The notes beneath the pieces are model-generated. The model searched no databases. It was given only the letters and a program-made list of their open reading frames with translations, and was not told the origin of the DNA. From Escherichia coli (lineage in GTDB: Bacteria; Pseudomonadota; Gammaproteobacteria; Enterobacterales; Enterobacteriaceae), in the NCBI RefSeq assembly GCF_024223415.1, contig NZ_CP100500.1: 64,000 nt of DNA; one strand, 5' to 3'. Position numbers and translations under genes: made by a program. How positions within the stretch are numbered: the stretch's first letter is position 1; every line of letters starts with the position of its first letter. Shown here one piece after another: positions 56,626-62,467 of the stretch.

Positions 56626-57108
56626 TTATTTTCTTGAGCACACTATACTAATGTATCCCAGAAGAGGTCCTGTGCATAATCCTGTTGCTGCCCATAATAC
56701 AGCAAGTGAAATATCAGGACCATCTGTATCCGGATAAAATCCTCCATAATAAACAGCAAATACAGTAGAGTATGCATTGAATGCAGGTAAACTACTGTTC
56801 ATGCACGGTATCTGAAGGAGTAAAAGAAGAACATACACTGTTATTATTACTGATATAATGATTGCCAACATGGCAGAAATGTGCAGGGATATCATGTAAT
56901 TTATAGCAGCAATACATAACACAGACGTTGCTATACCGGGAAGTAATGAAGCATAAATTTTCTTTAATATGTCAGGCGTCGCTCCCAGAGCATAGTACCA
57001 TGCCCAGCCAATAAATATAGCCCACACAGGAATATTAATCCCCGGCCATGAAGCCAGGCATGACAGCCCTGCTAACAGGGCTATGGTAAGATTCATCGGT
57101 AATTTCAT
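56626..57108 (-). CDS. inner-membrane protein, DUF1097-like
   Basis: 160 aa with 4-5 TM segments. Last gene of the carboxylase operon. The family name is from memory. Confidence 0.55.
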   Translation of the reverse strand: MKLPMNLTIALLAGLSCLASWPGINIPVWAIFIGWAWYYALGATPDILKKIYASLLPGIATSVLCIAAINYMISLHISAMLAIIISVIITVYVLLLLLQIPCMNSSLPAFNAYSTVFAVYYGGFYPDTDGPDISLAVLWAATGLCTGPLLGYISIVCSRK

Positions 57109-57122
57109 TTCAGACGCACCTG

Positions 57123-58109
57123 TTATGAGCCATAAGATAATGAATTAATGAGAAGGTTGAGTCTTTCATTAAATTCTTTACGGATTTCCAGAGCTTTATC
57201 CATACTGACTTGTGAAAATGTCACACTGGAGCCGGGTGCAAGTTGAGCCAGAATATCGAGATCAGTACTCACTACTGTCCCCACTGTCATATATCCCCCT
57301 CCTGATACAGCATCCCTGTGCAAAACTATTGGTGTGCTTCCAGAGGGAACCTGAATTGATCCCACGGGATAACAGGCATCAACGATATTTGATGGATCTG
57401 AACCAGCACCAAATGGCGGGTGCCGATCAACAAAATTAAGTGAGCGCCCTCCCTGAAACCTGAAACCTGTTCTGTCTGAATCCTTACTGATCTTCCATAC
57501 ATCATCAAAAAAACTTTCAACTGATTCCTGTTTCAGGCGATGGATATACATTCCGGGTACAACACGTAATTCATTTTCTTTAGTAAAAACTGGACGTAAC
57601 TCATCTGGCAGAGTGTAATTTATACGCCCTTTATTACATATTGCTTCCTGTACGGGTAATTCATCTCCGGCCTGTAACCGACGTCCTTTATAACCACCAA
57701 GACTGCCAAGGAGGTAAGTAGAACGACTTCCGGCAATAACAGGGACATTAATACCTCCCGCGATGGCAAGGTAACAGCGTACACCCACCGTGGTGTATGC
57801 GATTTTTAATATCTGTCCTTTCCGGGCTAACAGGGATGTATTCACCGGAACACTCTGATTATCCAGGGTCACCGTAAAAGGGGCACCGCTGACTGCAAAA
57901 AGAGTATCCTGCTCAAACAAGAGTTCGGGCCCCAGTAATGTGCATTCCAGCGCTGCATCAAACGGGTGATTACCGACAAGCAAATTGGCGGTAACTAACC
58001 CTGTACGATCTAATGCACCGGATGGCGGGATCCCGAGATGATAAAAGCCTTCTCGTCCTCCGTCCTGAACGGACGTGGATAATCCGGGCGTCAATACTTT
58101 AATTCCCAT
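57123..58109 (-). CDS. KipA/PxpC-like subunit (allophanate hydrolase subunit 2 family)
   Basis: MGIKVLTPGLSTSVQDGGREGFYHLGIPPSGALD is the hallmark N-terminus of this family. Overlaps the upstream gene by 11 nt. Confidence 0.8.
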   Translation of the reverse strand: MGIKVLTPGLSTSVQDGGREGFYHLGIPPSGALDRTGLVTANLLVGNHPFDAALECTLLGPELLFEQDTLFAVSGAPFTVTLDNQSVPVNTSLLARKGQILKIAYTTVGVRCYLAIAGGINVPVIAGSRSTYLLGSLGGYKGRRLQAGDELPVQEAICNKGRINYTLPDELRPVFTKENELRVVPGMYIHRLKQESVESFFDDVWKISKDSDRTGFRFQGGRSLNFVDRHPPFGAGSDPSNIVDACYPVGSIQVPSGSTPIVLHRDAVSGGGYMTVGTVVSTDLDILAQLAPGSSVTFSQVSMDKALEIRKEFNERLNLLINSLSYGS

Positions 58110-58983
58110 ACAGTTCTCCCAGTAAATTTTTAGTATAATCTTCAGGATTTTCTTCAAATGCGTTCAAATCAAAATTTACAGGCCTGATAAGTAATTCAAA
58201 ATTACCAGATTCCACATCACTTATACATTGATTATATTGTTCAGTATTGATCGCCCTGAACTTAATGATGTCCCCTGCCCGGAAAAACACCATAGAGTCT
58301 TTGAAATATGATAATTTCTGTTCTGTGTCATAAATCGGAGCTGGTGTTATACCGAACAATTGATACCCACCTGCCCCCCGGACTGGATATATAGCCCCGA
58401 AGCACCCGCCATGACCAACAGAATGTTTTGGTGTATCAGTTCTGGGAACAAGATATTTTGGAACCTGGATTTGCTTTTTCCGGTCAACCATCTGATACAT
58501 AAAAGGCAGCCCGGCAACGAAGCCAACCATAGAAACAAACCAGGGACTTGAATGATGGGCCTCAATAAACGTCTGAACATCCGGATATCCGTTTATTTCA
58601 GCAGCATACTCAAGATCGGTTAATGCCGGGTTTTGATGATTATTCCGGAACCGCATCAGGGTTTCATGAGTCCATGGATCATTATACAATACAGGAATTT
58701 CAATTATACGTGTCTGTAGTGTCATTTCTCCATTCCCGGAGAGCACATTAACATTTCGTATCTGTTGTAACAAATCATCAGGGTGTATAATGTCGGGATT
58801 AAATCTTATCTGACATGATGCATTTGCAAGGCAAATATCGAGCACACCATTAATATTTAATGATTCTATTTTTCTCGTAAGAGACAAGCTGTGAAAAAAT
58901 GCTTTAAGAGACATTTCCTCACTGACTTCGATGAAAAGATGCTCATCAGCACCAAATGTATAGCGCAAATTTATATCAGTCAT
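58099..58983 (-). CDS. KipI/PxpB-like subunit (allophanate hydrolase subunit 1 family), N-terminally extended
   Basis: 294 aa; ...PWFVSMVGFVAGLPFMYQ...VPRTDTPKHSVGHGGCFGAIYPVRGAGGYQLFGITPAPIYD fits the cyclophilin-like AHS1 pattern. Confidence 0.75.
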   Translation of the reverse strand: MTDINLRYTFGADEHLFIEVSEEMSLKAFFHSLSLTRKIESLNINGVLDICLANASCQIRFNPDIIHPDDLLQQIRNVNVLSGNGEMTLQTRIIEIPVLYNDPWTHETLMRFRNNHQNPALTDLEYAAEINGYPDVQTFIEAHHSSPWFVSMVGFVAGLPFMYQMVDRKKQIQVPKYLVPRTDTPKHSVGHGGCFGAIYPVRGAGGYQLFGITPAPIYDTEQKLSYFKDSMVFFRAGDIIKFRAINTEQYNQCISDVESGNFELLIRPVNFDLNAFEENPEDYTKNLLGELYGN

Positions 58984-58992
58984 ACAGGTTCC

Positions 58993-60610: not shown

Positions 60611-60627
60611 AACATCCTCCATGTATA

Positions 60628-61389
60628 TCAGTTTTGAGAATTTACACTTATGTCTGCCTCACGTAAGGCTTTATTTATTGCAATCAGAAGAGATAAGGCA
60701 CCGGGCGTATCACTATGGACACAGACAGAAGAGAAATGAATGTCAATATCCTGATCTTCTACAGTACGAACTTTTCCCTCCAGACAGGCACGCAGCACTT
60801 TTTTTGCGACATCATCAGGATTAAGAGGTTCAGTTCTCCGTATAAATACAATGGAACCGCTTTGATCATAATCCCTGTCGGCATAAAACTCACAAATAAC
60901 AGGATGTCCGATTTGCGTCGCTTCTTTCCAGATGGCACTACCATACATGCAATATATTCTCAATTCAGGCGCATAACTATGAAGCGTTGAGACAAAATGC
61001 TTTGCAGCATCCCGATCATGAGCAAGATGCATATACAACGCGCCATGAGGCTTAACATGGTTTACAGGCACATTGTGTAATGTGGCAAATTCACGCAAGG
61101 CCCCCAGCTGATAAATCATGTCATTGGTGATTTCCTCTGCGGTGCAGTGAATATGACGCCGGCCAAAACCAGCCAGATCACGATAACCGGGATGAGCACC
61201 GACAGACACACCACTGTCACGGGCGCTGATTATTGTACGGTGCATAATCCCCGGATCACCTGCATGAAAACCTGTCGCTATATTCGCTGAGGAGATGTAT
61301 GGCATAATATCAATATCCCGGATATCTCCGAGAGTCCATGCTCCAAAGCTTTCCCCCATATCAGAGCTGATATCAATACTGCGAAGCAT
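60628..61389 (-). CDS. LamB/YcsF (PxpA-like) lactamase-family subunit
   Basis: GGAGG SD. IDISSDMGESFGAW...ANIATGFHAGDP..M......A...GVSVGAHPGY.DL.GFGRR...VKPHGALY is the family signature. Confidence 0.85.
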   Translation of the reverse strand: MLRSIDISSDMGESFGAWTLGDIRDIDIMPYISSANIATGFHAGDPGIMHRTIISARDSGVSVGAHPGYRDLAGFGRRHIHCTAEEITNDMIYQLGALREFATLHNVPVNHVKPHGALYMHLAHDRDAAKHFVSTLHSYAPELRIYCMYGSAIWKEATQIGHPVICEFYADRDYDQSGSIVFIRRTEPLNPDDVAKKVLRACLEGKVRTVEDQDIDIHFSSVCVHSDTPGALSLLIAINKALREADISVNSQN

Positions 61390-61531
61390 TAAAACCTCCG
61401 TCTGACAAATACGGTAACAGTATGTCATGTAGCACATTTGTTTCTTTATTGTAAATTATTATTTTTCTATGGTAATATATTAAATTTATTTATAATTACT
61501 GTTGCAAAAATATCTTTATCAGGAAAATTTG

Positions 61532-62467
61532 ATGAACATCACACTCAGACAGATAAAATATTTCGTATCAACAGCGGAGTCCGGATCGTTATCAACTGCA
61601 GCCAAATCACTCAATATTTCACAGTCTGCGATAACAACAGCAATTCAGGGGCTTGAAAGGGACATCGGTTATAAATTACTGATTCGCTCAAAATCTGGCG
61701 TTGATTTAACAGATGAGGGAAGACTGTTCTTATACAATGCCTACAATATTATCCGGACATATGATGAGGCAATAAATACAGTGCATGTTCAGAAGCCTTT
61801 GCATGGAACAGTTTCCATTGCGGCGACTTATACAATAATGGGATATTTTTTACCTGTTCATCTGAAACAATTTTCAAGAATTTATCCACATATAAAGCTG
61901 GAGCTTTTTGAAAATCAAAGAAGCATTATTGAAACCGGACTTCTCAGCGGAAAATATGATATTGGGATTGTAATCAATGATAATCTGACATGTCCCGATA
62001 TTGTATCAGAAACACTGTTACGGTCGGAGCGCCGTATATGGTTACCATCCGGCCACCCTCTGCTGGAAAAAGAAATTCTCTCCCTGAATGATATTGTCTC
62101 AGAGCCTTTTATTATCCTTGATGTGGATGAAGCATGGGAAACAGCAAAACGTTACTGGAATACGGCCAGTACCATGCCAGATGTAATTTTACATACGCAT
62201 TCTATTGAAGCTGTACGAAGTATGGTTGCGAATGATATGGGTATAACCATTCTTTCTGACATGGTTTATCGCCCATGGTCGCTTGAAGGGAAACGTATAG
62301 AAACACGCGCATTATCTAAATCAGAAGTTTTCCCAATGAGTATTGGCCTGGCATGGCGTAATAATGTTGAGTTTACGCCTGCAATGCAGGCTTTCATCAA
62401 TTATTTCAGAAAGATTTTTATGTGTTCTCCCGGTTATCAAAACCGGAATGTTGACCACTTTATCTGA
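61532..62467 (+). CDS. LysR-family transcriptional regulator, divergent from the carboxylase operon
   Basis: MNITLRQIKYFVSTAESGSLSTAAKSLNISQSAITTAIQGLE is a LysR HTH. 311 aa. Confidence 0.85.
   Translation: MNITLRQIKYFVSTAESGSLSTAAKSLNISQSAITTAIQGLERDIGYKLLIRSKSGVDLTDEGRLFLYNAYNIIRTYDEAINTVHVQKPLHGTVSIAATYTIMGYFLPVHLKQFSRIYPHIKLELFENQRSIIETGLLSGKYDIGIVINDNLTCPDIVSETLLRSERRIWLPSGHPLLEKEILSLNDIVSEPFIILDVDEAWETAKRYWNTASTMPDVILHTHSIEAVRSMVANDMGITILSDMVYRPWSLEGKRIETRALSKSEVFPMSIGLAWRNNVEFTPAMQAFINYFRKIFMCSPGYQNRNVDHFI

Follow-up and report, generated by a model that had tools for sequence, protein, structure and literature searches.

The closest described counterpart of the gene cluster analyzed here is the butyrolactam hydrolase system of Pseudomonas putida KT2440. 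In that organism the pxpABC paralogue PP_2920-2 is specifically needed for the use of butyrolactam as a nitrogen source: cells with an in-frame deletion fail to grow when butyrolactam is the sole source of nitrogen, a plasmid complements the defect, and the enzyme is no substitute for the hydrolases of 5-oxoproline or valerolactam (bioRxiv 10.1101/2021.12.09.472016). In the fitness data of the supplement to that study, PP_2921 scores -4.43/-4.39 on butyrolactam and PP_2919 scores -4.63/-3.84, the latter on butyrolactam only, and the fitness table lists PP_2919 as a LysR family protein and PP_2922 as urea amidolyase-related (bioRxiv 10.1101/2021.12.09.472016). PP_2919 activates its reporter promoter at 50 uM butyrolactam, and the 200 bp upstream of the P. 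putida hydrolase drive butyrolactam-inducible expression (bioRxiv 10.1101/2021.12.09.472016). Among fungi, Aspergillus nidulans needs its lamA and lamB genes for lactam catabolism, and AmdR co-regulates them with 4-aminobutyrate (GABA) genes, namely those for a GABA transaminase and a permease (PMC8016842). Here we analyze a 6-kb cluster of seven genes in Escherichia coli, at positions 56626-62467 of a 64,000-nucleotide stretch of contig NZ_CP100500.1 (hereafter the window), which, to judge from its sequence, belongs with the P. putida butyrolactam hydrolase system as a biotin-equipped form.

We favor, with modest confidence, the hypothesis that the cluster is an inducible catabolic operon that opens a small lactam, most probably butyrolactam (2-pyrrolidinone), to GABA by a biotin-dependent N-carboxylation route. 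It comprises six minus-strand genes and a divergent plus-strand LysR gene, and all seven open reading frames (ORFs) are intact. A first-pass annotation, made from the letters alone, had read the operon as LamB-BCCP-BC-KipI-KipA-DUF1097 with the LysR gene divergent, where BC is a biotin carboxylase and BCCP a biotin carboxyl carrier protein; this order was borne out, and the Pfam and NCBIfam assignments agree with its labels for all seven genes. From the regulator to the end of the operon, the features are as follows.

61532-62467, plus strand: LysR-family regulator, 311 aa, with HTH_1 and LysR_substrate domains
61390-61531, no strand: divergent promoter/operator region, 142 nt, AT-rich, between the LamB-like and LysR genes
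60628-61389, minus strand: LamB/YcsF (PxpA-like) subunit, 253 aa, first operon gene (PF03746, E 5.5e-85)
60365-60610, minus strand: BCCP, 81 aa (PF00364, NF005457)
58993-60354, minus strand: BC, ATP-grasp, 453 aa (Biotin_carb_N, CPSase_L_D2, Biotin_carb_C)
58099-58983, minus strand: long KipI/PxpB-like carboxyltransferase (CT) subunit with CT subdomains C and D, 294 aa (PF02682, E 3.2e-36)
57123-58109, minus strand: KipA/PxpC-like CT subunit with CT subdomains A and B, 328 aa (PF02626, E 1.5e-84)
56626-57108, minus strand: DUF1097 membrane protein, 160 aa, last operon gene (PF06496, E 3.5e-19)

Along the direction of transcription the first genes are separated by 17, 10, and 9 nt, KipI and KipA overlap by 11 nt, and 14 nt separate KipA from DUF1097. 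The packing is operon-like, as had been claimed, with gaps of 9-17 nt and one 11-nt overlap in place of the 5-10 nt or overlaps first given. RefSeq gene boundaries in strain MS 119-7 are identical to those of the window.

Orthology and the likely substrate

The long (~290 aa) KipI-like family gave 7653 matches at E <= 1e-10, and at least 558 loci were confirmed in contigs taken from one genome per species; the locus comparison used throughout sets the window proteins against the best 80 of these at least 558 loci. In this neighborhood survey the same order, exactly LysR|LamB-BCCP-BC-KipI-KipA, recurs in 47 of the 80 loci, which lie in gamma-, beta-, and alpha-proteobacteria. The arrangement is not due to chance, given this recurrence in orthologous loci across proteobacterial classes.

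Several lines of evidence connect the window with the P. putida system. Genomes of the P. putida group carry a layout that lacks BC, LysR|LamB(252)-KipI(295)-KipA(323), and the window proteins are 54% (LysR), 59% (LamB), 66% (KipI), and 55% (KipA) identical to those of a P. putida-type locus (L017). The window LysR protein is 52-57% identical to the products of the LysR genes of the orthologous loci. In a tree of LamB, KipI, and KipA the window shares a clade with the P. putida type. Between the Pseudomonas enzymes that are accompanied by BC and those of the P. putida type, identity amounts to 86-93%. Since the orthologue PP_2919-PP_2922 is required for butyrolactam use, the substrate of the E. 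coli operon is probably, by analogy, no longer to be called unknown, and butyrolactam is the likely candidate. The first-pass annotation had spoken of an "unknown amide or lactam substrate"; the lactam class stands, whereas the word "unknown" gives way to the butyrolactam role of PP_2919-PP_2922, which largely amounts to a homologous cluster with an experimentally defined substrate. By the same analogy, the LysR protein of the window is a probable lactam-responsive activator.

The gene neighborhoods seen in these sequences are consistent with GABA being the product. In Xenorhabdus stockiae (L011), KipA is directly followed by a GABA transaminase that scores above its equivalog cut-off, and a GabT-like class-III aminotransferase, 87% identical to the Xenorhabdus one, follows KipA in an Enterobacteriaceae metagenome-assembled genome; few relatives of the E. 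coli genes are closer than these two loci. In a further locus (L010), the gene beside the LysR gene is most like succinate-semialdehyde dehydrogenase and scores below the family cut-off. In E. coli itself (L001), a MocR/GabR-like gene is followed by a gene for 4-aminobutyrate--2-oxoglutarate transaminase and then by an amino-acid transporter gene. The E. coli transaminase beside the cluster scores 842 bits against NF005272 (cut-off 725), and this GabR/GabT module is contiguous with the cluster in every E. coli genome that has either. The MocR/GabR-like regulator, the GABA transaminase, and the transporter may represent the downstream half of the pathway.

The carboxyltransferase and biotin subunits

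Membership in the PxpABC-type three-subunit lactam hydrolases is evident, with PF03746, PF02682, and PF02626 all above their cut-offs in one operon. By sequence comparison, however, both CT subunits appear closer to urea carboxylase than to PxpBC. The best match of the KipA-like protein among solved structures is the urea carboxylase of Kluyveromyces lactis (3va7, 185 bits), with E. coli YbgK/PxpC (5dud) at the lower score of 165 bits, and against the PxpC equivalog NF045499 it reaches 223 bits with a cut-off of 500. The KipI-like protein aligns over residues 7-272 with urea carboxylase alone (3va7, 5i8i), whereas the KipI/PxpB structures align with just its residues 122-251; it scores 101 bits against urea carboxylase TIGR02712 and 73 bits against PxpB TIGR00370, where the cut-off is 145.55. 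The LamB-like subunit scores 278.6 bits against NF003814 (PxpA subfamily, cut-off 226) and is 32% identical to E. coli PxpA. We therefore rejected an assignment to the 5-oxoprolinase PxpABC equivalog, in that the PxpB and PxpC cut-offs are failed, NF003814 alone is passed, and the subunits are no more than 29-36% identical to PxpABC of E. coli.

All modules of urea carboxylase, that is, BC, CT(A-D), and BCCP, are present as four separate proteins, and the domain content confirms the description of the cluster as a urea-carboxylase-like biotin enzyme in split form, joined by a LamB/YcsF subunit. The TIGR02712 scores of the four proteins are 507.5, 243.6, 101 (the KipI-like protein), and 20 bits, and their sum is well below the cut-off of 1303.85. 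An ORF and domain check of the cluster found no allophanate hydrolase, the place of which is occupied by LamB, and no carboxyguanidine deiminase partner. A urea or guanidine carboxylase was therefore also rejected, as the TIGR02712 cut-off is failed and neither partner enzyme is encoded in the cluster.

The two biotin proteins carry the expected signatures. BC scores 703.7 bits against NF009471 (cut-off 686), and its translation shows the glycine-rich loop GGGGKG and the motif EMNTRIQVEH. BCCP scores 121 bits against NF005457 (cut-off 87) and is above the cut-off of PF00364; its predicted biotinyl-lysine is K45 (codon 60476-60478) in the motif EIMKQF. The motif lysine is invariant in 57 BCCP orthologues, which follow the pattern E[VI]MK[QTSN]F (EVMKQF in 43, EVMKTF in eight, EVMKSF in four, and EVMKNF and EIMKQF in one each). 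The EIMKQ pointed out earlier as a departure from the canonical motif is indeed present, but E[VI]MK[QTSN]F is the norm of this family.

Proposed mechanism and the role of the biotin genes

The presence of additional biotin genes points, though not conclusively, to a carboxylation that precedes ring opening. In the mechanism that we propose, the LysR protein would sense the lactam and switch on the operon, as expected from its P. putida orthologue, and the DUF1097 protein would probably move substrate or product across the membrane. Following the logic of urea amidolyase, BC would carboxylate the biotin of the 81-aa BCCP at the expense of ATP and bicarbonate, and KipA/KipI would pass the carboxyl group to the ring nitrogen, which would yield an N-carboxy-lactam, that is, an activated, imide-like amide. 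The LamB subunit would hydrolyze the ring of this intermediate to N-carboxy-GABA, a carbamate predicted to lose CO2 spontaneously, and the resulting GABA could enter metabolism via the neighboring GABA transaminase. On balance, ATP hydrolysis would drive an otherwise unfavorable ring opening, with bicarbonate in a catalytic role. Operons without BC and BCCP, including that of P. putida, would take carboxybiotin from the housekeeping AccB/AccC. That the dedicated BCCP resembles AccB also speaks for the biotin reading. The more general proposal, that the long-KipI lactam hydrolases are true biotin-dependent N-carboxylating enzymes and that operons without BC (such as those of Bacillota) or without BC and BCCP together (such as that of P. 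putida) use AccC/AccB, is a tentative one that we hold to be nearly as probable as its contrary.

The distribution of the biotin genes bears directly on this proposal. BCCP and BC are present in 57 of the 80 loci and both are missing in 23, and LamB is directly followed by KipI in the 11 BC-less loci whose coordinates were inspected. In a neighbor-joining tree of LamB, KipI, and KipA, the BC-less loci are scattered among the BC-containing ones and the deep branches are all BC-containing, a topology that would imply at least seven losses of BC/BCCP. The biotin-equipped operon is probably the ancestral form of the butyrolactam hydrolase system. Close pairs of enzymes with and without BC are 91-97% identical (e.g., L017 versus L018 and L044 versus L051), and of the 297 columns without variation among the BC-containing loci, 286 are the same in the BC-less ones, while at each of the remaining 11 a single sequence differs. 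Because of this degree of identity and of column conservation, the enzymes appear to do the same thing whether or not they are accompanied by their own biotin genes. Relaxed constraint in the BC-less lineages was looked for and none was found, which fits the use of biotin supplied in trans and is also compatible with direct phosphorylation of the lactam (see below). The first-pass annotation's "biotin-dependent carboxylase" can accordingly stand as a reasonable hypothesis rather than a conclusion: biotin genes are not obligatory, given that 23 of the 80 loci, including the P. putida form, do without BC/BCCP while the enzymes stay 91-97% identical.

The alternative that survives best, unlikely in our estimation but deserving of serious attention, is direct use of ATP in the manner of PxpABC, in which KipI/KipA would phosphorylate the lactam and LamB would open the ring. 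In that case BC and BCCP would be accessories, which might tune activity, recapture CO2, or serve another step. This alternative readily accommodates a functional P. putida orthologue with neither BC nor BCCP in its operon, as well as at least seven losses of these genes from around nearly unchanged enzymes, and PxpB/PxpC have been assigned an ATP-dependent phosphorylation (PMC13274462). However, an accessory role for BC/BCCP has no obvious chemical rationale, and the CT subunits are more like those of urea carboxylase than like PxpBC. Nor would it be expected that BCCP and BC lie between LamB and KipI, with gaps of 9-17 nt, and are kept in 57 of the 80 loci and in all deep branches. Furthermore, KipA/KipI homologues physically bind biotin: in mycobacteria they bind the biotin of the BCCP of AccA3, as seen by cryo-EM (PMC13012033).

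An additional argument against direct phosphorylation comes from an unrelated layout in which, once more, the enzymes have a BCCP gene linked to them. Bacillota-like contigs carry KipI(330-346 aa)-KipA-LamB-BCCP(70 aa)-DUF1097 (L093:1001-4886, L106:3668-7531, and L108:3850-7531), and the motif of this BCCP is canonical (EAMKME or DALKME). No BC was found within 7 kb of these Bacillota clusters, a natural example of BC having to be supplied from elsewhere. The Bacillota layout thereby provides a second, independent association of these enzymes with a biotin carrier.

Several points weigh against the biotin-dependent opening of butyrolactam that we favor. PP_2919-2922 were matched to the P. putida-group loci by layout, annotation, and species group, not by the KT2440 sequence. 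Identity to the P. putida proteins is just 54-66%, such that specificity could differ and extend, for example, to a substituted pyrrolidinone or to valerolactam. The adjacency of the GabR/GabT module counts as one observation because it belongs to one clonal island of differing GC content (0.53 on the GabR/GabT side versus 0.42 in the cluster), and because of this difference the module and the cluster may have been acquired separately. The P. putida operon, which lacks BC and BCCP, works from a three-gene plasmid in its own host (bioRxiv 10.1101/2021.12.09.472016), so that the system can do without dedicated biotin genes, and perhaps without biotin altogether. For the related 5-oxoprolinase PxpABC, it is assumed in the literature that PxpBC uses ATP to phosphorylate the lactam, biotin playing no part (PMC13274462), and our literature search yielded no study of a biotin-dependent bacterial lactamase and no experiment that probes any bacterial member for a role of biotin or bicarbonate or for avidin sensitivity. 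A paper on TNT (trinitrotoluene) and another on co-culture were set aside, as they deal with a true urea carboxylase and a canonical pxpABC, which differ from this cluster. Lastly, the fitness of biotin-synthesis mutants on butyrolactam is weakly suggestive as a sign of a biotin need. For KT2440 bioB (PP_0362) the butyrolactam values, -3.37/-3.19, are the most negative listed, compared with -0.73/-0.84 on GABA (supplement, bioRxiv 10.1101/2021.12.09.472016), and bioF, bioH, bioC, and bioD score about -1.2 on butyrolactam, a stronger defect than they show on GABA or valerolactam and a milder one than on ammonium (supplement, bioRxiv 10.1101/2021.12.09.472016).

Alternative substrates and membrane partners

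We consider it improbable that specificity has diverged from that of the P. putida enzyme and that the system is instead a biotin-dependent carboxylase/hydrolase acting on another nitrogen compound, for example a lactam that is larger or substituted, a hydantoin, a cyclic imide, or a derivative of urea or guanidine. The 54-66% identity to the P. putida proteins would allow such a divergence, and the membrane partners also speak for it: a permease of ~440 aa (e.g., L018:11944-13269) follows KipA in 35 of the 57 BC-containing loci and in none of the 23 BC-less loci, and the E. coli partner, DUF1097, is different again. The permease shows a weak match to PF02133 (NCS1) in L006 and no NCBIfam match; NCS1 is the cytosine/purine/hydantoin transporter family. 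However, the BC-containing Pseudomonas enzymes, at 86-93% identity, are very close to the butyrolactam enzyme and their LysR regulators are orthologous, and a GABA transaminase adjoins the closest enterobacterial relatives. A urea or guanidine derivative is further disfavored by the lack of an allophanate hydrolase or carboxyguanidine deiminase in the cluster and by summed urea carboxylase equivalog scores far under the cut-off.

DUF1097 appears from its distribution to be a recurrent partner of these enzymes and probably acts as a transporter for the lactam or its product. The subfamily is small, with 18 matches, and its members adjoin LamB/KipI/KipA/BCCP genes in every context examined (L091, L092, L093, and L106-L109). 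The full seven-gene layout including DUF1097 is found in two proteobacterial loci, L091 and L092.

The mobile island in E. coli and neighboring genes

Of 5426 complete E. coli genomes, 11 carry the 6-kb cluster, with an identity of at least 99% and always on the chromosome. Its GC content is 0.42, compared with 0.525 for the whole window, and insertion sequence (IS) elements surround it. The search turned up no close donor: outside E. coli, identities of the best relatives are 55-71%. The cluster is a mobile-island accessory trait that few E. coli have, and it probably lets them use 2-pyrrolidinone as a nitrogen source. The same rarity, flanking IS elements, and low GC content relative to the window, along with an IS3-family element that interrupts the cluster in strain GF60 (hit H9), could also be read as signs of silent cargo on a decaying island, functionless in E. 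coli. We find this very improbable given that in the other genomes every one of the seven ORFs remains intact, with essentially no sequence differences, and that the regulator and operon structure, as predicted from the sequence, look complete.

That BC and BCCP form a second acetyl-CoA carboxylase module, unconnected with the neighboring genes, is barely credible: it has in its favor the RefSeq product names ("acetyl-CoA carboxylase" for BCCP and "acetyl-CoA carboxylase biotin carboxylase subunit" for BC) and identities of 46% to E. coli AccC and 39% to the C-terminal biotinyl domain of AccB (an ungapped alignment that pairs the segments YRKPAPDSAPF and YRTPSPDAKAF), but an ORF and domain check found no AccA/AccD-type carboxyltransferase homologue within the cluster, the placement between LamB and KipI is conserved across proteobacterial classes, and the family models are distinct from that of the housekeeping accC, with BC reaching 563 bits against the TIGR00514 equivalog cut-off of 626.5. 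With no AccA/AccD partner and a BC below that cut-off, an acetyl-CoA carboxylase identity was rejected, and from sequence the RefSeq names would not be right for this cluster.

In the divergent region, a promoter scan shows sigma-70-like hexamers on the minus strand at 61483-61455 and 61475-61448; the scan counted 21 promoter-like sites versus 20.7 in shuffled sequence, that is, no excess. A terminator scan called no clean terminator after DUF1097. Beyond the LysR gene lies the regulator gene of the GabR/GabT module.

62609-64000, minus strand: MocR/GabR-like regulator dependent on pyridoxal phosphate, running off the window (Aminotran_1_2; MocR/PdxR/GabR family matches)

The island varies by strain, and in MS 119-7 an IS3 element is inserted between the LysR and MocR-like genes (L001:21037-22265). 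On the other side of the cluster, an ABC ATPase gene and DUF1097 are separated by an AT-rich stretch of ~800 bp (55819-56625, GC about 0.36-0.40) that contains no ORF as long as 60 aa; it could mark a junction of the island or be a remnant of decay. The ORF of this ABC transporter ATPase (55141-55818, 225 aa) matches the N-terminal ~220 of ~350 positions of a PotA/PhnT-type profile and, as predicted from this alignment, seems to lack its C-terminal domain; the gene is additionally split by IS2 in strain MS 119-7.

Elsewhere, a Pseudomonas locus (L002:13419-18126) has the cluster directly upstream of genes whose Pfam domains fit bioBFHCD. By gene numbering, the cluster of P. aeruginosa PAO1 would likewise lie directly upstream of the biotin synthesis genes. 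This adjacency in Pseudomonas could be a coincidence or a link to biotin demand. In Agrobacterium (L004) the cluster is near a CD-NTase and patatin pair (705-2544) that has the look of a CBASS-type defence system, and a second LamB/YcsF copy is found at 16295-17083, beyond an IS66 element.

Comparison with known systems

The likely substrate was already known from a homologue, whereas the biotin link, the hypothesis of supply in trans, and the DUF1097 association are new. If the proposed mechanism is correct, it would constitute a new class of biotin-enzyme reaction, namely ATP-driven lactam amide hydrolysis in bacteria via nitrogen carboxylation, and would link fungal lamA/lamB, the P. putida hydrolase, the operons of the PA0491-PA0496 type (at least 558 relatives), and the binding of a biotin carrier in mycobacteria. 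It would also explain the mechanism of the fungal LamA/LamB system, provide a functional rationale for the way in which mycobacterial KipA/KipI homologues dock on the biotin carrier of AccA3, assign to DUF1097 a first function, that of a dedicated transporter of lactams or omega-amino acids, and correct a common misannotation of the BC and BCCP genes as acetyl-CoA carboxylase. In practical terms, the LysR regulator and the hydrolase could serve as a butyrolactam biosensor and represent a degradation route to be removed from lactam-producing strains, respectively.

One of the systems compared is mycobacterial MSMEG_0435-0436 (Rv0263c-Rv0264c), in which KipA/KipI homologues sit on a long-chain acyl-CoA carboxylase, a precedent for a biotin carrier acting in trans, and for which no urea carboxylase activity was detected (PMC13012033). 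These proteins are much more distant from the window subunits, with scores of 92 and 53 bits. PxpABC (E. coli YbgJKL; Bacillus subtilis KipI/KipA/YcsF) consists of the same three families and is likewise an ATP-dependent lactam hydrolase; it differs in its short PxpB (218 aa), which is without the urea-carboxylase-like regions, in the absence of biotin genes from the system, and in its substrate, 5-oxoproline. That the cluster of E. coli carries biotin genes was the point on which the first-pass annotation set it apart from this housekeeping system. Urea carboxylase/urea amidolyase (K. lactis, 3va7 and 5i8i) has the same modules as the window, is the best match for both CT subunits, and follows the same proposed logic, in which an amide is N-carboxylated and then hydrolyzed, whereas in the window the modules are four polypeptides, the hydrolase partner is of the LamB/YcsF type, and a lactam is the most likely substrate.

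The fungal system provides a parallel in domain content. We take A. nidulans LamA to be UniProt P38095, a urea carboxylase homologue, and LamB to be the founding LamB/YcsF protein. As in the window, a urea-carboxylase-like protein is thus paired with a LamB/YcsF protein, but LamA is a single fused eukaryotic polypeptide and the window encodes separate bacterial subunits. By analogy, fungal LamA/LamB may be considered the fused equivalent of the E. coli operon.

Similar clusters in Pseudomonas, mentioned in the first-pass annotation as carrying only generic names, do exist. The function of the PA0491-PA0496 genes is called unknown in the papers that mention them (PMC6249292, PMC5521831); for PA0492-PA0496 the literature found consists of transcriptome mentions only. 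Clusters of this type occur in Pseudomonas, Rhizobiales, Marinomonas, Musicola, and Lonsdalea and have the LysR|LamB-BCCP-BC-KipI-KipA order of the window, most with the 440-aa permease where the window has DUF1097. We presume, from gene order and annotation rather than from the PAO1 sequence, that PA0491-PA0496 corresponds to the L002-type locus. The biotin-equipped form is widespread, yet no study of that form was found in the literature. P. putida PP_2919-PP_2922, which is known from genetics and reporter assays, differs from the window in having no BCCP, BC, or membrane-protein gene, and shares with it the divergent LysR|LamB-KipI(long, ~295 aa)-KipA arrangement and membership in the same orthologous group.

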